Positions 21,864 to 30,219 of a stretch of DNA of 64,000 nucleotides are shown here, piece by piece. The translations under genes were made by a program, and so were the position numbers. The notes below the pieces were generated by a model. The model was not told the origin of the DNA. It saw nothing but the letters and a program-made list of their open reading frames with translations, and searched no databases. Source of the stretch: Pyrinomonadaceae bacterium (GTDB lineage Bacteria > Acidobacteriota > Blastocatellia > Pyrinomonadales > Pyrinomonadaceae); NCBI GenBank assembly GCA_041751035.1, contig JBGSYH010000005.1:4237-68236 (forward strand). Direction: 5' to 3'. Numbering within the stretch: the first letter of the stretch is position 1; each line of letters begins with the position of its first letter.

Positions 21864-22202
21864 CTACCAACGATTGCGGCCACCGCCGTAACCGCCGCCA
21901 CCGCCGCCGCCTCCGCGGTTGCCGCGACCACCACCACCGCCTCCGCCAAATCCGCGGTCTTCGCGAGGTTTAGCTTCGTTCACCTTAAGGTTGCGGCCGT
22001 TGTGCTCTTTGCCATCGAGTTCGGCAATGGCCTTTTCGCCATCTTCTTTCGATGCCATTTCAACAAAACCAAAACCGCGCGAGCGGCCGGTTTCACGGTC
22101 TTCAACGACGTTAGCAGATTCGACAGTGCCGATCCCTGCAAAAAGTTCTTCAAGTTCAAAACTGGATGTCTGAAAAGACAGATTTCCAACGTAGAGTTTC
22201 AT
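21864..22202 (-). CDS. RRM-type RNA-binding protein with Gly/Arg-rich tail
   Basis: MKLYVGNL (RNP2) and RGFGFVEM (RNP1) motifs with a C-terminal GGGGGGRGNRGGGGGG tail. The true start is the ATG at 22202, not 22607. Confidence 0.9.
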   Translation of the reverse strand: MKLYVGNLSFQTSSFELEELFAGIGTVESANVVEDRETGRSRGFGFVEMASKEDGEKAIAELDGKEHNGRNLKVNEAKPREDRGFGGGGGGGRGNRGGGGGGGGYGGGRNRW

Positions 22203-22578
22203 TTTTAATTTTATGCGAATTTGTTGCCCGCAACTGGCAAGATCAAAAAGAAGCAACGAATTCGAATAGAATTTTGGGGGAAACGGTCTGCCCGCCAAGA
22301 CTCGGATTCGTAAAGCCCGAAAGCACTTCCAAACCAAATAACCAACCTGCCCTCGAACTTCCAAAACGCCGTCGAATCTAAAGCCTACCGTTCGTGGCGC
22401 ACCACCGTTGATGCACAAGAGAAGGACTAACATTGATACTGTCGCATTTAACCAAAGCCGAATGCAAGCCCTTTTTTCAAAATATTGCACTGCCCGCGAC
22501 CTATGTTTTACCTGTGCCGAATTCCCGTCAACATTCACGTTTGGATTTCGAAAGATCAGGTGTATCATTTCGACAACG

Positions 22579-23118
22579 ATGAACGAAGAATTTGTTACCC
22601 GGCTCAAGCGGGCATTTGACTACGCAACGATGGCGGAGATCGCACGGCGCCTTGATCTGCCGCACGCCACGATACGAAATTACTTCAACGGCCGGCTGCC
22701 GGCGCCCGAGGTTTTGATCAAGATAGCCGATGAAACTAATGTGTCGCTCAATTGGCTGCTCACGGGCCGCGGCGACATGTTCCTTTCCGGTGCCAAGATC
22801 GATATCGGGCGGCTGATCGATGAGCGGATCGAAGCCTTGATCGAACAAAAGATGTCGGGCCGTGTCGCCGAAGAGGTGCAAAACCTCGGGGCGATCGATG
22901 CACCGCCGCCTTTCGATGTCGAAGCCGCCGTCCGGCAGTTCGGTGATCCGGAACGCGTTATGAGCGAATGGTTCAAGTATGACGGCCGCGAATATCCGAC
23001 CGATTTTGGCATAGTTTTCTTCCAGGGCTGGGAAACATATACACATGCCGACCGCGTCGAGGCCGTCCGCGATGCGAAGAAAGTTCTCGACCGAACACTC
23101 CGCAATAAAACTAAGTAG
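22579..23118 (+). CDS. XRE/CI-like helix-turn-helix protein with unknown C-terminal domain
   Basis: HTH segment MAEIARRLDLPHATIRNYFNGRLPAPEVLIKIADETNVSLNWLLTG. ATG at 22579. Confidence 0.7.
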   Translation: MNEEFVTRLKRAFDYATMAEIARRLDLPHATIRNYFNGRLPAPEVLIKIADETNVSLNWLLTGRGDMFLSGAKIDIGRLIDERIEALIEQKMSGRVAEEVQNLGAIDAPPPFDVEAAVRQFGDPERVMSEWFKYDGREYPTDFGIVFFQGWETYTHADRVEAVRDAKKVLDRTLRNKTK

Positions 23119-23184
23119 TTCAAGGTTCAAGGTTCCAGGTTCAAAGTTCTCGTGTTTCGTTTCTCTGAGCAGGCTACGCGTTTC

Positions 23185-23256
23185 TGTGAAACACTTGAAA
23201 CAGCTGAAACACGTGAAACACCTGAAACACGTGAAACACCTGAAACAGCTGAAACG
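23185..23256. repeat. Tandem repeat, 8 x 9 nt (NNTGAAACA)
   Basis: Counted directly: tgtgaaaca cttgaaaca gctgaaaca cgtgaaaca cctgaaaca cgtgaaaca cctgaaaca gctgaaacg. Confidence 0.95.
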
Positions 23257-23262
23257 TGTTTT

Positions 23263-23409
23263 AGTCCCAAGTCCCAAGTCCCAAGTCCCAAGTCCAAAGT
23301 CCAAAGTCGAAAGTCGAAAGTTCAAAGTCCAAAGTCCAAAGTTCAAAGTCCAAAGTCCAAAGTCCAAAGTCCAAAGTCCAAAGTCCAAAGTCCAAAGTCC
23401 AAAGTCCCG
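23263..23409. repeat. Heptanucleotide microsatellite, 21 x 7 nt (AGTCCCA/AGTCCAA/AGTCGAA/AGTTCAA)
   Basis: Counted directly as 147 nt of uninterrupted 7-nt periodicity. It produces repetitive pseudo-ORFs (SPKSKVQ...) in several frames. Confidence 0.95.
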
Positions 23410-23482
23410 AGCCCAAAAACCACCTTCCGGTTTTATCGCATCTGTGATACACTCTTGCATCTGTTAAATCAACTCTCATGTT

Positions 23483-23932
23483 ATGCGTTTTTTCCTCGAA
23501 AAGATCGAAGCACTTAAATCGGGCTGGAACCGGCGGCCATTGGCCGAAACTGATTTTCATCGTCTCTGCCGGCGGCATAAGATCACGGTCCAGGAAATGC
23601 CGCTCAAGGTCAGCGGCTTTTATTATTCGATGATGGGCCGCCACTTTATCGCGATCGACAGCCGATTGCCGCCCGCGAAAAAGCTGTTTGTGATGTTTCA
23701 CGAATTCGCTCATTTCCTGCTGCATGCACCCGACCGCGGCGTTACCGCAAATTTCCACGGCATTGGCCGCAAGACCCGTAAGGAATGCGAAGCCGACCTT
23801 TTTGCCGCCGTCGCTTTGATCCCAAGAACGTGGCTCGAAACCCGCACGCCTCACGACATCACCACCGAAGAAGGCATCGACCCCGAAACCGTCGCCGAAC
23901 GCTTTCAAATTTTCAAAGACCGCGGGATCTAA
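23483..23932 (+). CDS. ImmA/IrrE-family (DUF955) zinc metallopeptidase
   Basis: HEXXH motif in MFHEFAHFLLH plus a downstream E(CEADLFA), at the size typical of ImmA/IrrE domains. Confidence 0.8.
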   Translation: MRFFLEKIEALKSGWNRRPLAETDFHRLCRRHKITVQEMPLKVSGFYYSMMGRHFIAIDSRLPPAKKLFVMFHEFAHFLLHAPDRGVTANFHGIGRKTRKECEADLFAAVALIPRTWLETRTPHDITTEEGIDPETVAERFQIFKDRGI

Positions 23933-23993
23933 GTTCAGAGTTCAAGCTTCAGCTTGCTTCTTCGTTCAGAGTCCAAGCTTTAGCTTGTTCTTT
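23933..23993 (+). repeat. Two direct REP-like units (GTTCAGAGTNCAAGCTTNAGCTTG)
   Basis: 23933-23962 and 23964-23993 each hold a 6-bp-stem hairpin caagct-NN-agcttg. They overlap the last codons of the RAYT ORF. Confidence 0.85.
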
Positions 23994-24674
23994 CGGAAAC
24001 ACATCCCATCCTTTCCCATAATCTAACACCGGAAATTCTTTCCAAATCCGAAGAACTTCGTCTCGGCCAAGTTCTTCAAGAAATTGGTGAGCACTCGAAT
24101 AAGGCCAATCCTGCCATTTTTCAACCAGACCATGATGAACTGCATTGTTGTGAATATAATTAACGCTCGCCCAATAGTGGCGGTTTGACTTCATGTCTCG
24201 GTCAAAGAAATTGAACCAAACCTTTCTGCCGGGTGTGTTGTCCTCAAGATTCCATAAGCGTGCGGTTCGACCATGCAGTATGCCGATCAGTTTTCGCAGC
24301 AGTGCCATTTCGGCAGTCGAGGCCAACAAGTGGTAATGATTCGGCAGGATAGTCCAAGAATGCAGCTTCGAATCAGCCTCCTGACAGGTTTTTAAAATTG
24401 CGACCTCAAACTCAGTTATTCGATCGATAGTTTTTCCGATTATCGAATGATGCAGATAACAGGCGGCTGTAATAATGAAGGTATTGGTGCCTTCAAAGTC
24501 GCGGTGCGGCGGGGAATGCCAAGGCATCCGCCGTATCTTTCGGCCCTCTAGAACTTGCTCCCGCTGTTTCTCGTTTAACTTTCGCCAAAGGTACATTGCG
24601 ATTTGAATTTTATGTTCTAAATTTGCCCGGTTGGCTCTAAATTCAATGTGCGAATTATTGGACATCAGAAACAT
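23949..24674 (-). CDS. REP-associated tyrosine transposase (IS200/Y1_Tnp-like, RAYT)
   Basis: HUH-type motif ILPNHYHLL and a C-terminal tyrosine motif VNYIHNNAVHHGLV, at ~240 aa as in RAYTs. Confidence 0.7.
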   Translation of the reverse strand: MFLMSNNSHIEFRANRANLEHKIQIAMYLWRKLNEKQREQVLEGRKIRRMPWHSPPHRDFEGTNTFIITAACYLHHSIIGKTIDRITEFEVAILKTCQEADSKLHSWTILPNHYHLLASTAEMALLRKLIGILHGRTARLWNLEDNTPGRKVWFNFFDRDMKSNRHYWASVNYIHNNAVHHGLVEKWQDWPYSSAHQFLEELGRDEVLRIWKEFPVLDYGKGWDVFPKEQAKAWTLNEEAS

Positions 24675-24696
24675 TTTTGCAATAAGTTAACAGTGA

Positions 24697-24780
24697 GTTC
24701 AGAGTACACGCTTCAGCGTGCGGTGCTGGCGAAAAGGCTTGATGGTCGGCGCCGGACAAGCTAAAGCTTGAACTCTGAAC
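24697..24780. repeat. Inverted pair of REP-like units (BIME-like)
   Basis: 24697-24721 gttcagagtacacgcttcagcgtgc is in plus orientation with a compensated stem cacgct/agcgtg. 24755-24780 gacaagctaaagcttgaactctgaac is the inverted copy. Confidence 0.85.
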
Positions 24781-24855
24781 TTTCGTAGTGACATCGCACG
24801 CGTTTTGGTCTATATTTCTTCCGTTCAACCCCAATAACTTTTTTCGGAGGCCGAA

Positions 24856-25569
24856 ATGGCAACCAACGATACTTTTGACCGTCGATCTTACGACCGCAGA
24901 TTGTTTCTGTGGGCGGCGATCGGTTTCGCCTTGCTCGCTTTTGCCGGTTTTGCCCAGACTTATTACCTCAAGCCCTTCATCCAGACGGTGCCGCTGCGGA
25001 CGATCACTCATTTTCACGGGCTGACGATGTCGGCATGGATCATACTTTTCGCCACGCAGGTCTTTTTGATCCGCTCGAAGAATGTCGCGCTTCACATGCG
25101 GCTCGGTTGGGCCGGTGTTGCTCTTGCGGTGGTGGTCATCGTCGTCGGGTTGGTCACCAGCATTGAGGCCGCGCGTAACGGAGTCGCACCCGGCGGGATC
25201 GATCCGCTTGCGTTCATGATCGTGCCGCTCGGTGACATGTTGGTCTTTGCGATCCTGTTCGGAGCGGCGATCTATTACAGAAAAGTTCCGGCCAACCATA
25301 AGCGGCTGCTGCTCGTAACGGCTTTCAACTTTCTGCCGCCGGCGGTCGGCCGCATTCCGTATGCACCGCTTGAGCTCGGGCCGCTGTGGTTCTACGGCTT
25401 TCCCGATCTGCTGATGCTTATCATTCTCGGCATTGATACGTGGAAGAACGGACGGTTGAACCGGGCTTTTGCTTTCGCGGCTGTATTTTTGATCGTCTCT
25501 CATGTCTTTCGAATTATGTTTATGTCGAGCGTCCCGTGGATGAACTTTGCGACGTGGCTTACAACCTGA
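24856..25569 (+). CDS. Integral membrane protein, unknown function
   Basis: 237 aa with about 6 predicted TM helices. The long antisense ORF 24655-25503 is rejected. Confidence 0.7.
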   Translation: MATNDTFDRRSYDRRLFLWAAIGFALLAFAGFAQTYYLKPFIQTVPLRTITHFHGLTMSAWIILFATQVFLIRSKNVALHMRLGWAGVALAVVVIVVGLVTSIEAARNGVAPGGIDPLAFMIVPLGDMLVFAILFGAAIYYRKVPANHKRLLLVTAFNFLPPAVGRIPYAPLELGPLWFYGFPDLLMLIILGIDTWKNGRLNRAFAFAAVFLIVSHVFRIMFMSSVPWMNFATWLTT

Positions 25570-25605
25570 TCCGAGTTTGATATCTTGCCACCGATCGCCT
25601 CGATC

Positions 25606-26955
25606 TTACTCAGAGAGCTTTCTCCTTAACAATTCAGTTTCGAGGCGTTCGCGTTCCGTGGTGCTTGACGGGTCTTCCCATTCGGTCTCAAGCTGAAGAT
25701 CGCCTAGGCCTTCGATCCGCAATGCGAACTGCATTATCTCAGCCCAGGTTTGACCGAAGGCGAACTGGCGGTCGCGCACCTTGGCGATAAAGCGGGATTC
25801 GGCTCGCAGGATCGCTTCGCCCGAAGGGAACCCACGCGTGTGCGGCAGCAGATAATACATCGGCGTACCGGTGACGGATGCCATGTCGATGCGAAAGCTG
25901 TCTTTTACTTTAAGGAACTGGTCGAGGTTCGCGGTGCCGAAATCGCCAAATTTCGCATCGGGATTTTGCGTTACCCAAAGATGATCGACGCCTGCCTTGA
26001 ACGGAGCGACGGCGTTACCATCATTGTCATATTCGATCTCTATGCCGGCGGCCCAACGTTGCCGATACGCCGAATATTCCATCGCGACCAGCATATCCAG
26101 AACAGATTTGTTCAGGCCATCTTGCACGGGTATCGCCGATTCCAGTTCCGAACGACCGAATGCACCGAGGTCTGCGTTGTTCGCGAAATGGAACACAGGA
26201 ACAGTGTTGTAGGGATTGGCGATGACGTGCATGTCCGGAATACCCTCGTGCTCCGCACTCGTGGGGACAGGAGTGTCCCCGCTCCCGTAGGGAATGAAGT
26301 CGCGGTGGTCGGGGAGCGTTGCTTCGCCGGGTTTGGCGGTGATGTACCGTTCGATGCGGTCGGCGTAAAAAAGATTGAGCCGCGTGTGCTTATCGGCGGT
26401 CCGCCAAAATTTAGCGGCGCGGATGATCCGGCCGGGATGGTCTTCATCATATGTCACCGAAACGTTCGCCGCACGGTTCGGATAGATCGCCGCCTTGCCT
26501 TCATCATCCGGCCAGACGATCGCATATGCATCGCCGCTAACGAGAGCTTCGCGATGGACCTCGCCAGAACGAAGCTGCATTCGGTTGCGATGCCAGATGT
26601 GTTCGAGAGGAGCGCGGACACTCTTGTCCGCATCGCCGGTTCCTCCGGCAAAATATTCGCGGCCCATCAAAGACTCCAACTCTTTCGCACTTGTTCGCGT
26701 CGAAGCGACGCTCATGGGGACATGAGTGTCCCCGCTCCTACGGAAGCCGGTGATGCGGAGTTTGTCGCGGACTGCGTCGCAGACCGCAGGGCAAAGGTTC
26801 ATCGCGAATTCGCGAAAGAGCGAGCCGAACGCGTTCTCAAATTTTTCGGTCGCGTAAGCCAGATCATGTTGGCCGCGATAGTAGCGTTCGGGCTTTGTGT
26901 ATCGCGCACCCGCGGTGCGGAAATTGTGAATTGCTTCTTCGATGTGTGTTTTCAT
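25606..26955 (-). CDS. Phage portal protein (SPP1 Gp6-like)
   Basis: About 450 aa. The C-terminal segment ...MYYLLPHTRGFPSGEAILRAESRFIAKVRDRQFAFGQTWAEIM resembles the conserved portal core. ATG at 26955 (MKTHIEEAI). Confidence 0.75.
   Translation of the reverse strand: MKTHIEEAIHNFRTAGARYTKPERYYRGQHDLAYATEKFENAFGSLFREFAMNLCPAVCDAVRDKLRITGFRRSGDTHVPMSVASTRTSAKELESLMGREYFAGGTGDADKSVRAPLEHIWHRNRMQLRSGEVHREALVSGDAYAIVWPDDEGKAAIYPNRAANVSVTYDEDHPGRIIRAAKFWRTADKHTRLNLFYADRIERYITAKPGEATLPDHRDFIPYGSGDTPVPTSAEHEGIPDMHVIANPYNTVPVFHFANNADLGAFGRSELESAIPVQDGLNKSVLDMLVAMEYSAYRQRWAAGIEIEYDNDGNAVAPFKAGVDHLWVTQNPDAKFGDFGTANLDQFLKVKDSFRIDMASVTGTPMYYLLPHTRGFPSGEAILRAESRFIAKVRDRQFAFGQTWAEIMQFALRIEGLGDLQLETEWEDPSSTTERERLETELLRRKLSE
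26263..26285. repeat. 23-nt palindromic repeat copy 1 inside portal CDS
   Basis: ggggacaggagtgtccccgctcc, with a 7-bp stem ggggaca/tgtcccc. Confidence 0.9.
26716..26738. repeat. 23-nt palindromic repeat copy 2 inside portal CDS
   Basis: ggggacatgagtgtccccgctcc matches copy 1 at 22/23 positions and lies 453 nt (151 codons) away. Confidence 0.9.
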
Positions 26956-26998
26956 AATGATGGTTGATCCGCCATGTGGCGGACGGTCTAAGCTTTGA

Positions 26999-27388
26999 TC
27001 AGCGAAGAATTGCGCCCAACGCAACACCCGCCGCAACGTCGCCGATCCGGCGCCAAACGGACGTTCGTTTTGTCTTTAGCCCGGCGATCAGCTTGTCCTG
27101 AGCGGTGATCACCGCGTCTTTGGCAGCGATCGTTTCGTTCTTTGCGGCGATGGCTTGTCTTAGCGCGTCGGTCTCGCTTTTACGTGTTTCGTTCAGTTCT
27201 TTGAGGACCGCGTTCGCCTGTTGTTCGGTATCGAGCCGCGTTTTTAATGCGGCGTTCTCGCGTTCGAGCGCTTCGATAAGGCGATCGGCGAGACGAAGTT
27301 CTTCGGTGCTATTTTGCCCGCTCACGGTGACGCTGAAGATCGCGGCGAGCAGCAGCGGAATCAGCAGAAAGTTTTTCAAGTTGTTCAT
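26999..27388 (-). CDS. Secreted/membrane coiled-coil protein (lysis-cassette position)
   Basis: The ATG at 27388 (MNNLKNFLLIPLLLAAIF...) gives a signal-like N-terminus, a coiled coil and a C-terminal hydrophobic segment. It overlaps the upstream gene by 80 nt in another frame. Confidence 0.5.
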   Translation of the reverse strand: MNNLKNFLLIPLLLAAIFSVTVSGQNSTEELRLADRLIEALERENAALKTRLDTEQQANAVLKELNETRKSETDALRQAIAAKNETIAAKDAVITAQDKLIAGLKTKRTSVWRRIGDVAAGVALGAILR

Positions 27389-27635
27389 CTTGATTGCGTG
27401 CGGCCGTCTCGATCTCTGTAAGCCTGGCTTCGAGATACGCGGCCTTTTCCTTGTAAATATTGGTCTGTTTTTCAAGCTCGTCGGAGCGTTGCTGTTGCTG
27501 GTCGGCGAGGTGTTTGGTCCTCTCAACGGCTTGTTCGAGCCTCGCGATTTGGATATACGAGCGGATCGAGTTTCCGATGATCAGGACCGCGATAAGCATC
27601 GCGGCGGCGAAGTAGAGTTTGTGTTTAAGGGTCAT
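27309..27635 (-). CDS. N-terminally anchored coiled-coil protein (i-spanin-like topology)
   Basis: 108 aa, with one N-terminal TM helix (LYFAAAMLIAVLIIG) followed by a charged coiled coil. Confidence 0.5.
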   Translation of the reverse strand: MTLKHKLYFAAAMLIAVLIIGNSIRSYIQIARLEQAVERTKHLADQQQQRSDELEKQTNIYKEKAAYLEARLTEIETAARNQDEQLEKLSADSAAARRDLQRHRERAK

Positions 27636-27650
27636 GGTTGTTCGTTAATT

Positions 27651-27686
27651 TGAAATTTCAGATCTGAGATCTGAGATTTCAGAATC
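27651..27686. repeat. Heptamer-periodic palindromic element
   Basis: In tgaaatttcagatctgagatctgagatttcagaatc, gatctga occurs twice in tandem and tcagatctga is a perfect palindrome. Confidence 0.7.
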
Positions 27687-27702
27687 GAAACGGGCACACT
27701 CC

Positions 27703-27906
27703 CTACCGGTCGTGTTTCTGCCGGTCCTGATGTTTTTTGTTCAGGTGAATTTGCAGCAGCACGTCGATCGTCTTTCCGATACTAAAAAATAGTATCGGTA
27801 GGACGATCGCCGAGATGATGGTGATGAGCGTTCGCGTTTCGATCGCCGCGAAGACGGAAGAAACGGTTGAGAAATATGCGAGTAAGAAGTTTTTAATGTC
27901 GTTCAT
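27703..27906 (-). CDS. Holin-like small membrane protein
   Basis: 67 aa with two TM helices and a highly charged C-terminus (KKHQDRQKHDR), adjacent to the endolysin-like gene. Confidence 0.5.
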   Translation of the reverse strand: MNDIKNFLLAYFSTVSSVFAAIETRTLITIISAIVLPILFFSIGKTIDVLLQIHLNKKHQDRQKHDR

Positions 27907-27935
27907 AGTAGTTTGTGTTTTCAGCTGTTTTTGAA

Positions 27936-28013
27936 CGCGGATCAGGCGGATTCTCGCGGATGCATTTATGGTTTTCGTATCCGCTGCGATCTGCGCTATC
28001 CGCTTTATCCGCG
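27936..28013. repeat. Word hairpin (GCGGAT words / ATCCGC words)
   Basis: The left arm cgcggatcaggcggattctcgcggatgc faces the right arm gtatccgctgcgatctgcgctatccgctttatccgcg. It spans the stop codon at 28005-28007. Confidence 0.75.
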
Positions 28014-29108
28014 TTCCATTGCTTCCCTTATTCGCCCGAGCGCGATCTGGCGGTAGAGGTACATCAGCGTAAGTGCTGCGGCGACTCCGGCCGCGAAGAA
28101 CCAGACCTCACGCGGAAGCCCGGCGAGAAAGCCGAACACCGCCCACGTGGTTTGAAATACTGTGCCGACGATCGCTGTCCAAAGAGATTTCGCACGGTCG
28201 CTCCGTGTGATGACTGTCGTTGCGATGCGCTCGATCTGGTCGTAGGTTTCGGCGGCTTGGTTCACGCTCGTTTCAACTCGGTCGAGCCCGGAGTTTTGAG
28301 TACAAGCTTCAGCTTGCTTCTTTTGCTGAACGGCCTGACGGTTATCTACAGACAAGCTAAAGCTTGAACTCTCAACCGGTGAACTCTGAACGCTTGGAGT
28401 CTGAATTCCGAGAAGCTCGTCGGTCAGCCGGACGCCGTGGACGACCGTCGGCAATTCGAGCTGCCATTTTCCGAGCATTATCTGGTTAAGAAAAAAGCGA
28501 GTTCGATAGCGCGTCGCGCGAAGCCGCAGGATCGAACCGAGCCATGCATCGCGGGTCCGGACATATTCGGCGACCCACCTTTTTTCAAATTCGATCGATG
28601 GCCCGTTGCCGCCTTTGATGCTTACGCGGTCGCGGATCCTTTCGTATGAGCCGTGCGTCAGCGAATCGTAAATGACCGCGAGCGAAAGCGGCAGCACAAA
28701 GCCTGAACCTTCGCAGGCGGCGATCGCCGGTGCGAGATAATTTGTGAATGCAATGCGGTCCTGTGCCTCGCGCATCTCGCGTGTCATCCCGGCGGCACGA
28801 AGTGCGTTGCGAAAGACCATGTCGCCGGAAAGTTCTTTGATCGCATCGGGCGAAGTATCCAGCAGTTTGCGATAGCGTTCGATCATCACCTTGCGGCCGA
28901 CAATTCCGCCAAGTCGAAGATATTCATCCACCACCGCACGCAGCGAACCCGAACGATGCGTGAACTGACTGGCTCCGTACGAAATGCCGGCTCCGTCGTT
29001 CAAAACAGCAACCGCCGAATAATTGCCGAGCGGCTTGCCGGTCTCAAATATCCGCACGATCGCCGAGGCCTTTCTCTTATCAATTGTTGTAAAGGTCATT
29101 TGTTTCAT
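28005..29108 (-). CDS. Endolysin-like glycoside hydrolase (GH46/lysozyme-like N-domain) with C-terminal TM segment
   Basis: The N-terminal ETG...NDGAGISYGASQF pattern resembles the Glu/Asp core of chitosanase-like lysozyme folds. The C-terminal ~60 aa are hydrophobic. The start is ATG at 29108 or 29099, and a REP pair is embedded at 28293-28406. Confidence 0.55.
   Translation of the reverse strand: MKQMTFTTIDKRKASAIVRIFETGKPLGNYSAVAVLNDGAGISYGASQFTHRSGSLRAVVDEYLRLGGIVGRKVMIERYRKLLDTSPDAIKELSGDMVFRNALRAAGMTREMREAQDRIAFTNYLAPAIAACEGSGFVLPLSLAVIYDSLTHGSYERIRDRVSIKGGNGPSIEFEKRWVAEYVRTRDAWLGSILRLRATRYRTRFFLNQIMLGKWQLELPTVVHGVRLTDELLGIQTPSVQSSPVESSSFSLSVDNRQAVQQKKQAEACTQNSGLDRVETSVNQAAETYDQIERIATTVITRSDRAKSLWTAIVGTVFQTTWAVFGFLAGLPREVWFFAAGVAAALTLMYLYRQIALGRIREAMERG
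28293..28406. repeat. Inverted pair of REP-like units embedded in frame in a CDS
   Basis: 28293-28320 gttttgagtacaagcttcagcttgcttc is in plus orientation and 28351-28376 gacaagctaaagcttgaactctcaac is inverted, with an extra half-unit to 28406. The architecture matches 24697-24780. Confidence 0.85.
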
Positions 29109-29250
29109 CCTTGAAAATGCTTCTTGCAAACGATATGTTTGTTTGATAAAATAGAATGGTCGGACGATAAAGGACGCCAAGGGTTTTATATTATCCCCGC
29201 CGCTTACATACCGCCCGGCCACTTGCAGAATAGGTGTTCCAGATGCAGAA

Positions 29251-29344
29251 GGAAATAGCAATTGTTAAGGATTATGGCAATTGTTGAAGATGGAATAAAT
29301 GGAATGATTGGAATGAAAGTGGGCACTTGGCGCACTTGGAAAGG
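29251..29344. repeat. Left mosaic inverted-repeat block
   Basis: Contains the words ggaaatagcaattgtt, gcaattgttgaag, ggaataaatggaa and gcacttggcgca, which recur reverse-complemented at 29679-29742. Confidence 0.8.
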
Positions 29345-29353
29345 AGCAAAGAA

Positions 29354-29584
29354 ATGAAACGTACATTCGATATTCAGGTTCGGCCGAAAATGAGGCTTAG
29401 TGAGATAGAACGCATTTTGAAAGACAACCGGGCGATCGTGCCCGTGCCCTCGCGGCAGACGCTGATCCGCATGTGCGAATCCGGTGTTCTTGAAACACCA
29501 ACGGGCAAACCGGGCCGGAGCGGGTGGTTGGTTTATGAAGATTCGTTTCTAAAGTGGCTCAAGTCGCTGGATGAAAACGGGTGA
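29354..29584 (+). CDS. Small excisionase-family (HTH_17-like) DNA-binding protein
   Basis: AAGGAG SD then ATG at 29354. The segment SRQTLIRMCESGVLET...GWLVYEDSFLKWLKSL fits the winged-helix excisionase-family pattern. Confidence 0.55.
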   Translation: MKRTFDIQVRPKMRLSEIERILKDNRAIVPVPSRQTLIRMCESGVLETPTGKPGRSGWLVYEDSFLKWLKSLDENG

Positions 29585-29599
29585 ATTGAATGCGGGTTT

Positions 29600-29644
29600 T
29601 AGCCACGAATGCACGAATTTTTCTTATTAGTGCATTCGTGGCTA
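29600..29644 (+). repeat. 15-bp perfect hairpin (GCCACGAATGCAC family)
   Basis: tagccacgaatgcac - 15-nt loop - gtgcattcgtggcta, directly after the stop at 29584. No U-tract follows. Confidence 0.85.
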
Positions 29645-29678
29645 TATCTGAGAAGTATGGCAAGCGACTTCCGGCGGA

Positions 29679-29742
29679 CCTTTCCATTTATTCCAATTGC
29701 GCCAAGTGCGGTCAACTTCAACAATTGCTATACCGCATTTCC
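29679..29742. repeat. Right mosaic inverted-repeat block
   Basis: Its reverse complement reads ggaaatgcggtatagcaattgttgaagttgaccgcacttggcgcaattggaataaatggaaagg, which shares exact 12-16-nt blocks with 29251-29344. Confidence 0.8.
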
Positions 29743-29769
29743 CCAAACCTCGTTTATTCTCGCCGCTGT

Positions 29770-30219
29770 ATGAACGAAGAAATACAAAAAATCGAGAGCG
29801 AAGATGCGGCGGCCATGCCGGATGCGTCGCTCGAAAGCAGTGCCGAAGTTGAACAGCTTCGGCGTGAGAATGAGGAACTGAAACAGGCCGCACGTATGAA
29901 GGCGGCTCACGATAATTTGACGCAAAAACTTGCTGATGCGGGCGCACGCTCGCCTGAGCTATTGTTCGACACCGTCCGCGGAAAAATTCAATTTGACGAA
30001 GGCGGCGAACCGCTGAACACGGCGGCGTTGGTCGCGGACCTAAGATCAAAATTTCCGGAACAGTTCGGCGCTACCCACGCGTCTGCATCGATCGATGCGG
30101 CCGCGGGAGCCGGGGCTCGTCCAAACTTTCTAACCGCGGAAGCACTCGCAAAGATGACCCCGCAAGAGATCGCACGGCTCGATTGGAACGAAGTGCGAAG
30201 CGTATTAACTAACAACTAA
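29770..30219 (+). CDS. Phage scaffolding protein (GP20-like)
   Basis: Coiled-coil N-terminus, with the DAGARSPELLFD...IQFDEGGEP...LVADLRSKFPEQFG pattern typical of GP20-type scaffold proteins. ATG at 29770. Confidence 0.65.
   Translation: MNEEIQKIESEDAAAMPDASLESSAEVEQLRRENEELKQAARMKAAHDNLTQKLADAGARSPELLFDTVRGKIQFDEGGEPLNTAALVADLRSKFPEQFGATHASASIDAAAGAGARPNFLTAEALAKMTPQEIARLDWNEVRSVLTNN

Follow-up and report, generated by a model that had tools for sequence, protein, structure and literature searches.

The question raised by this locus is whether a single transposase-like gene, lying between short hairpin repeats in a soil Pyrinomonadaceae bacterium (Acidobacteriota, Blastocatellia), is a REP-associated tyrosine transposase (RAYT) accompanied by its own family of repetitive extragenic palindromes (REPs). 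The stretch of DNA that was analyzed, called the window below, comprises 64,000 nt (G000:C5:4237-68236) of a genome of 3.84 Mb in 42 contigs with 51% G+C, and positions refer to the window unless another contig is named. To our knowledge, what is understood of REP/RAYT biology is based almost wholly on Gammaproteobacteria. REPs and RAYTs are well known in Proteobacteria, and we found no paper describing this lineage and this form of repeat. A first-pass annotation of the same DNA had stated that no such system was known from this kind of genome, and a literature search accordingly found nothing that links REPs with Blastocatellia. With a probability of about 0.88, we conclude that the locus is a REPtron, i.e., a domesticated-type Y1 HUH RAYT gene together with a cognate REP which it recognizes and spreads.

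Six copies of the repeat unit, (A)GTTCAGAGTTCAAGCTTYAGCTTGCC, are present in the window, and four of them bracket the RAYT open reading frame (ORF; 23949-24674, minus strand), two per side. Scanning with the pattern GTTCAGAGTNCANGCTTNAGCNTG recovered these four without mismatch at 23933-23956 (+), 23964-23987 (+), 24697-24720 (+) and 24757-24780 (-), and the remaining two at 28293-28316 (+) with two mismatches and 28353-28376 (-) with one mismatch, while the pattern matched in none of 100 dinucleotide shuffles. On the 3' side of the gene, the ORF currently terminates at a stop codon inside the distal unit (23933-23956; GTTCAGAGTTCAAGCTTCAGCTTG), and the proximal unit (23964-23987; GTTCAGAGTCCAAGCTTTAGCTTG) contributes translated sequence to a 15-aa tail. 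The two units on the 5' side form a convergent doublet, of which the inner arm (24697-24720) carries the stem variant CACGCT/AGCGTG in place of CAAGCT/AGCTTG and the outer arm (24757-24780) is canonical. The outer arm is oriented as the RAYT gene, which is also the case in 82 of 93 orthologous loci. This layout had been proposed in the first-pass annotation, including the two direct 3' units, the variant stem and a further pair away from the ORF, and all of it was recovered. The 5' side was likewise correctly described as one plus-strand and one inverted unit, except that their spacing is not 33 nt, as the gap measures 36 nt for 24-nt units.

The gene product had been assigned to the RAYTs from its HUH motif (NHYHLL) and a C-terminal Tyr within a 241-aa ORF, and motifs, hidden Markov models (HMMs) and structure all uphold this assignment. 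The Pfam model Y1_Tnp matches with 25.5 bits, and by far the best model is NF047646 (REP_Tyr_transpos) of NCBIfam, with 73.8 bits and an E-value of 1e-20; REP_Tyr_transpos also matches all 12 aligned members of the clade (best E 1.2e-23). In alignments of 12 and 49 sequences, NHYH with His113 and His115 (about 24338-24330) and Tyr173 (24158-24156) are invariant, and further invariant residues are found in PWHxPPH, N112-H113-Y114-H115, N172-Y173 and N177. When a profile of the clade was compared with PDB, the sole match was 4ER8, the E. coli TnpA-REP bound to a REP hairpin (E 6e-7). In this alignment LPNHYHLL corresponds to LPEHMHCI and NYIHNNAVHHG to DYIYINPVKHG, so that the HUH motif, the Tyr and the Asn are all aligned, and Tyr173 is placed on the Tyr of YIYIN as the catalytic residue. 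The AlphaFold model (pLDDT 85.7, pTM 0.83) has 4ER8 as its best fold match as well (E 6e-9, TM 0.66), followed by the IS608, ISDra2 and IS200 transposases at approximately 1e-4.

The 241-aa ORF itself is probably annotated from too early a start. Homologues are about 200 aa long and all begin at the residue aligned with Met27 (24596; MYxWRK), and a sigma-70-like -35/-10 consensus match (TTGCAA-17-AATAAT; 24682-24654, minus strand), lying between the upstream REPs and Met27, falls within the supposed first 26 codons. Judged from these alignments, the true start is probably Met27 and the conserved protein has 200 aa. The gene accordingly spans 23949-24596 on the minus strand from Met27 to the present TGA, with the conserved 200-aa body at 23997-24596.

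The Y1_Tnp domain and the hairpins on both sides could also belong to an ordinary IS200/IS605 insertion sequence, in which the hairpins would serve as the left and right ends. We regard this as very improbable, and the possibility, which had been raised in advance, is contradicted by several lines of evidence. The IS200/IS605 model NF033573 gives only 21 bits, below its cut-off of 55 and far from the 73.8 bits of the RAYT model, and 4ER8 is the best structural match. The genome contains one copy of the gene, the next matches having E-values above 1e-3, and some 100 copies of the repeat occur without it. The flanks share one repeat, inverted between the two sides, and have no distinct left and right ends, and there is no adjacent tnpB, the neighbors being an IrrE-like peptidase and a membrane protein. 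Moreover, the position of the gene is syntenic in its closest relative, and the positions of orthologues are syntenic within two other genera.

A REPtron is expected to be accompanied by dispersed repeats, and the first-pass annotation had proposed a genome-wide search for copies beyond this locus. We find 108 copies on 25 of the 42 contigs when up to three mismatches are allowed, 64 of them exact, and 102 copies with a structure-based scan. Since contig ends are no more than a few hundred bases away from many of them, both figures are probably undercounts. Conservation extends over 26 nt, (A)GTTCAGAGTTCAAGCTTYAGCTTGCC, and drops sharply on either side. This block is built from a single-stranded 5' foot, GTTCAGAGT, one further nucleotide, and a 6-bp stem around a TY loop (effectively 5 bp with a 4-nt loop). 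The repeats avoid genes: only 16% of the copies lie in stop-to-stop ORFs of at least 200 codons, compared with 82% of random positions, and of 78 REP clusters placed on a crude gene map, 58 are intergenic, 12 are genic and 8 lie beside contig ends.

The stem is perfectly paired over 6 bp in 87 of 105 copies, and the hairpin has been kept by paired changes. CAAGCT/AGCTTG occurs 71 times, CACGCT/AGCGTG 11 times, CAAACT/AGTTTG three times and CAGGCT/AGCCTG once, and half-changed stems are rare, each being seen once or twice. These counts show that the paired change at 24697, which had been read as compensatory and as preserving the stem, is real and one instance of a recurrent pattern, found both genome-wide and across the 93 orthologous loci.

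In terms of organization, 50 units are single, 22 stand in direct arrays with a period of 29-31 or approximately 107 nt, and 15 inverted doublets are present, all of which are convergent and none divergent. The doublets are also distinct in sequence, as 26 of their 30 units are variants and the singles and arrays are mostly canonical. As single-stranded DNA, the doublet at the locus (24690-24790) folds with -22.6 kcal/mol (z -3.9). An Rfam search of 22000-30000 returned no family match. No link emerged between the strand of single and tandem REPs and local GC skew (23/20 vs 18/11, p 0.63), in a draft genome where the skew is weak.

A composite repeat of approximately 107 nt was observed at four sites or more outside the window (C12:95933, C30:394126, C40:48941 and C5:328254). 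It consists of two direct REPs around a conserved spacer (…CTTATCTGCTGGCTTTGCG…CACAGATG…), and could represent a larger mobile element assembled from REPs.

Relatives of the protein are numerous and of uniform length. A search of 5.8 billion proteins gave more than 1000 of them, nearly all of exactly 200 aa, among which one is named a Pyrinomonadaceae transposase and one, from JGI, a REP-associated tyrosine transposase. In a sample of 80 genomes from the same family, 15 have a protein match and 12 of these a full-length orthologue, and among 301 sampled Acidobacteriota genomes 10 have an orthologue (the source genome included), 9 of the 10 in the same class. Genomes of relatives mostly hold one copy, and two genomes hold two. 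A scan of species-representative genomes gave 380 related loci, and of the best 80 nearly every one bears the label Pyrinomonadaceae, Blastocatellia, Chloracidobacterium or Acidobacteriota, the exceptions being a few metagenome-assembled genomes (MAGs) labelled otherwise.

The association of gene and repeat is maintained in most of this clade. Units of the form GAGT, 1 nt, 6-bp stem, TY and 6-bp stem are found in the flanks of 86 of the 93 orthologous loci, which are nearly all labelled Blastocatellia; REPs lie on both sides in 79 and are arranged as upstream (+) and downstream (-) in 71. The first downstream REP usually starts 0-56 nt from codon 200, and 22 stem sequences occur among the loci. 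Perfect pairing across the orthologous loci is given by construction, because the scan demanded perfect stems; what is informative is that tag and loop stay constant, that the unit recurs within each locus, and where it lies. GAGT is the core of the REP foot that is invariant across the clade.

Across about 90 genomes, the REP type matches the protein clade. Mapped on the protein tree, the stem class requires 7 changes, compared with 28-37 when the labels are shuffled, and shared descent explains part of this agreement. Cognate pairing can be examined more directly by counting REPs with an ACG stem in whole genomes. Those with a RAYT from the ACG clade contain 51 (G023), 44 (G002) and 86 (G030) such REPs, whereas the source genome has one and G074, a congener without RAYT or REPs, has none.

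Several findings weigh against the REPtron reading. The GTAG tetranucleotide is found on neither strand at the hairpin foot, and the NF047646 score of 73.8 bits lies below the curated cut-off of 80; apart from this tag and this cut-off, which is missed by 6 bits, the defining RAYT/REP features are present. The Tyr motif is YIHNNA and not the Y---NP of class 2, with the Asn invariant and the Pro replaced by Ala here and in most clade members, some of which keep NP. A single REP folds weakly as single-stranded DNA (5 bp and a 4-nt loop, -3.3 kcal/mol, z -1.8); the lone REP was therefore rejected as a strong structure, strong folding being found only in doublets. The 15-aa REP-encoded tail at the C-terminus could impair the enzyme. 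Finally, REPs of the GTTNRGAGT type occur in five genomes where no cognate RAYT was detected (77 in G018, 113 in G053, 42 in G028, 58 in G079 and 32 in G058), and the congener G023 has 88 REPs of the source-genome type, with its sole RAYT coming from the ACG clade. A search of G018, G053, G028, G079 and G058 with NF047646 gave weak Y1 genes, none of them bracketed by this REP. Such genomes imply either that the repeats outlast a lost gene or that the gene is unassembled there, and the REPs of these five genomes and of G023 may have outlived their enzyme.

Genomes with REPs and no orthologue also leave room for a different explanation, in which the repeat is spread or kept by another agent, e.g., another Y1 protein, slippage during replication or selection for a function as terminator or RNA element, and has merely accumulated beside this gene. 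The genome does contain nine further Y1_Tnp-like genes that differ in sequence (C40:81570-81908, C30:38896-39234, C36:120753-121079, C37:6031-6264 and five more), but no copy of this REP was found within 3 kb of any of them. Similarly, in the REP-rich genomes that lack an orthologue, the genes that resemble RAYTs do not carry the repeat on both sides, and only 2 of 12 such loci have one lone REP unit. Some features of the repeat resemble a terminator. Of the 26 single-orientation REP clusters located between co-directional genes, 19 are oriented as the upstream gene, a T-rich stretch follows the REP unit, and a terminator-like score is reached by the two units that follow the IrrE-like gene, which hints faintly at a role as terminator or RNA element. 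However, such a role is compatible with spread by the RAYT. Since 86 of the 93 orthologues are flanked in a fixed pattern of orientation, and the REP type follows both protein clade and genome, we consider an independent agent to be quite improbable, if less so than an insertion sequence.

The closest relative of the locus, a syntenic JGI metagenome contig with 89% protein identity, indicates recent change here. It has the order portal-gene fragment, REP, RAYT, REP and convergent IrrE-like gene, with a single REP per side and a normal WDVY-TGA end, whereas the source genome has two REPs per side. The distal 3' unit is kept in this relative and the proximal one is missing, and by this comparison REP units have been gained at the locus after the split from its nearest relative. 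Homologues terminate in WD[VI]Y-stop, and the ORF here is 15 codons longer, running via the proximal into the distal REP. Because the extra 3' REP directly abuts the last conserved codons, it has displaced the ancestral stop, and translation would read through 15 REP-derived codons (PKEQAKAWTLNEEAS) to the TGA inside the distal REP. Overlaps of this kind have precedents, as REPs overlapping the 3' end of RAYT genes were already listed by Di Nocera 2013 (PMC3733652), and REP insertions were noted in subclass 2.8 genes by Quentin 2018 (PMC6006769).

The displaced stop and the added tail raise the possibility that the gene is an inactive or impaired relative of RAYTs, disabled when a REP insertion removed its stop, and that the REPs are a slowly decaying fossil. 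The REP-rich genomes of the family without a detectable cognate RAYT, where REPs outlive the gene, would be consistent with this. Nevertheless, the frame is open, and the clade-invariant residues, including the HUH motif, the Tyr and the Asn, are intact. With 64 of 108 copies exact and 68-71 sharing an identical stem, the repeats suggest recent copying or strong constraint, and REPs have been gained at the locus itself since the split from the 89%-identical relative. Several orthologues likewise read through into a 3' REP, so the tail seems to be tolerated. We therefore find an inactive gene unlikely, even though it is the strongest of the competing explanations.

Two sets of genes border the RAYT. 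A CI-like and an IrrE-like gene form a pair on one side (22408-23932), and the other side holds genes for a membrane protein (24856-25569), for an SPP1-type portal (25606-27036), for a chitosanase-like protein and for a capsid. Because of the CI-like, IrrE-like, portal and capsid genes and the GH46-like one, a decaying prophage was first considered as carrier of the RAYT; this reading was set aside, and we claim neither a prophage nor phage-borne transfer. Many members of the family have the chitosanase-like gene. In the congener G074 (C7), approximately 23 kb separate the portal gene from the CI/IrrE pair, compared with 1.7 kb here, where the RAYT lies between them; the RAYT neighborhood has thus been rearranged. 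In G023 (C4), an other-clade RAYT is found approximately 4 kb from the IrrE homologue.

The third pair of REPs in the window is a convergent doublet of 84 nt (28293-28376), which is read in frame in the chitosanase-like ORF (28005-29261, minus strand), within the linker that joins the GH46/chitosanase-like domain to the membrane helices of the C-terminus. At 64-88% identity, homologues share the REP-coded peptides VQSSSFSL and QAEACTLN, two of them with an extra unit, and more distant homologues are without these peptides. The shared peptides indicate an old insertion that different species tolerate.

Three tandem arrays fill the interval from the CI-like to the IrrE-like gene (23118-23407), namely GTTCAAG ×4.6, TGAAACACC ×7.7 and AGTCCAA ×20.7. 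Their heptamers look like the GAGT(T/C)CAAG part of the REP, and no long AGTCCAA array was found elsewhere in the genome.

By homology with E. coli TnpA-REP, the REPtron proposed here would work on single-stranded DNA, where the RAYT protein would bind the folded hairpin together with its 5' foot. Cleavage would be carried out by Tyr173, with a metal held by His113 and His115, and the ends would then be rejoined. Single REPs, tandem arrays and convergent doublets may be moved or copied in this way into mostly intergenic sites. Binding, cleavage and strand transfer, as well as any activity of the protein at present, are inferred. The WQ motif has been linked to recognition of GTAG (Quentin 2018; PMC6006769), and the WF that replaces it here (WY or WC in relatives) would fit a different tag.

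These observations also permit a broader, tentative view, to which we give somewhat less than an even chance. The RAYT clade of Blastocatellia, together with its REPs of GAGT tag and short stem, could form a third tag class beside the GTAG and CGTC superfamilies (Di Nocera 2013), characterized jointly by WF/WY recognition residues, doublets of two variants, in-frame linker units and possibly use as terminators. If true, this class would provide an independent and phylum-distant test case for long-term co-evolution of REPs and RAYTs.

The clade is well sampled in soil Acidobacteria, and its 380 related loci, 22 stem variants, non-canonical tag and clear cognate pairs offer natural material on how a Y1 enzyme reads a hairpin and its foot. 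It also bears on the persistence of REPs after loss of the enzyme, as several genomes keep 30-110 REPs with no cognate gene detected. On the practical side, REPs break MAG assemblies, and since they extend or interrupt ORFs in frame, annotators should mask them.

Among known systems, the obvious reference is the E. coli REPtron, which reportedly consists of TnpA-REP (a RAYT, YafM) and the REP/BIME elements. Both systems have a single-copy Y1 HUH protein with a HUH motif, a catalytic Tyr and a downstream Asn, encoded between inverted REPs, and in both the REPs are dispersed extragenically, whether alone, in tandem arrays or as inverted doublets. Doublets here pair two REP variants, which resembles the Y and Z REPs of BIMEs. 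However, the two proteins share only 18% identity, and TnpA-REP has 165 aa compared with the 200 aa here, where a Pro-rich N-terminal extension (LPWHSPPH) is present. WQ in E. coli is WF or WY here, and the tag is GTAG at the foot in E. coli and GAGT, 1 nt from the stem, here. TnpA-REP has been classed as subclass 2.2 (PMC6006769), and the 6-bp stem described here is shorter than the long canonical REPs of RAYT subclasses 2.2, 2.4, 2.7 and 2.8 (PMC6006769).

The REPIN-RAYT system of Pseudomonas fluorescens SBW25 (Bertels and Rainey 2011, PMC3116915; RAYT group 3, equal to subclass 2.5) is similar in that each REP family has one RAYT, that convergent doublets form a long hairpin on folding, and that REP sequence diverges together with RAYT lineage. 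It differs in host phylum and tag, and in the share of doublets, as only 30 of about 102 units here are in doublets and singles (50) and direct arrays (22) dominate.

Subclass 2.8 comes from Cyanobacteria in its original description, whose authors mention that nr also holds close relatives from other phyla (Quentin 2018; PMC6006769). Compared by description, its members share NHYH, a length of about 199 aa (200 here) and a Pro-rich N-terminus with the present protein, and some of them carry an intragenic REP; the differences are YIHYNP with long GT[AG]G REPs in subclass 2.8 and YIHNNA with short GAGT REPs here.

Within the phylum itself, Y1 genes have been reported in other forms. TIRYT/TIRtron and class 3 TnpA-Y1 genes are found in Terriglobus, Koribacter, Acidobacterium and Granulicella (PMC3733652; Quentin 2018), and for Acidobacteria, Di Nocera 2013 (PMC3733652) listed only transposases flanked by terminal inverted repeats (TIRs) and Quentin 2018 (PMC6006769) only class 3. 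These genes resemble the present one in being bordered by inverted repeats, and some of these repeats make up small families. They differ in their long TIRs or atypical structures and, for class 3, in the motif Y----Q, whereas the gene described here has Y---N and short REP hairpins, and its flanks are not long TIRs but 24-26-nt hairpin units of a 100-copy family.

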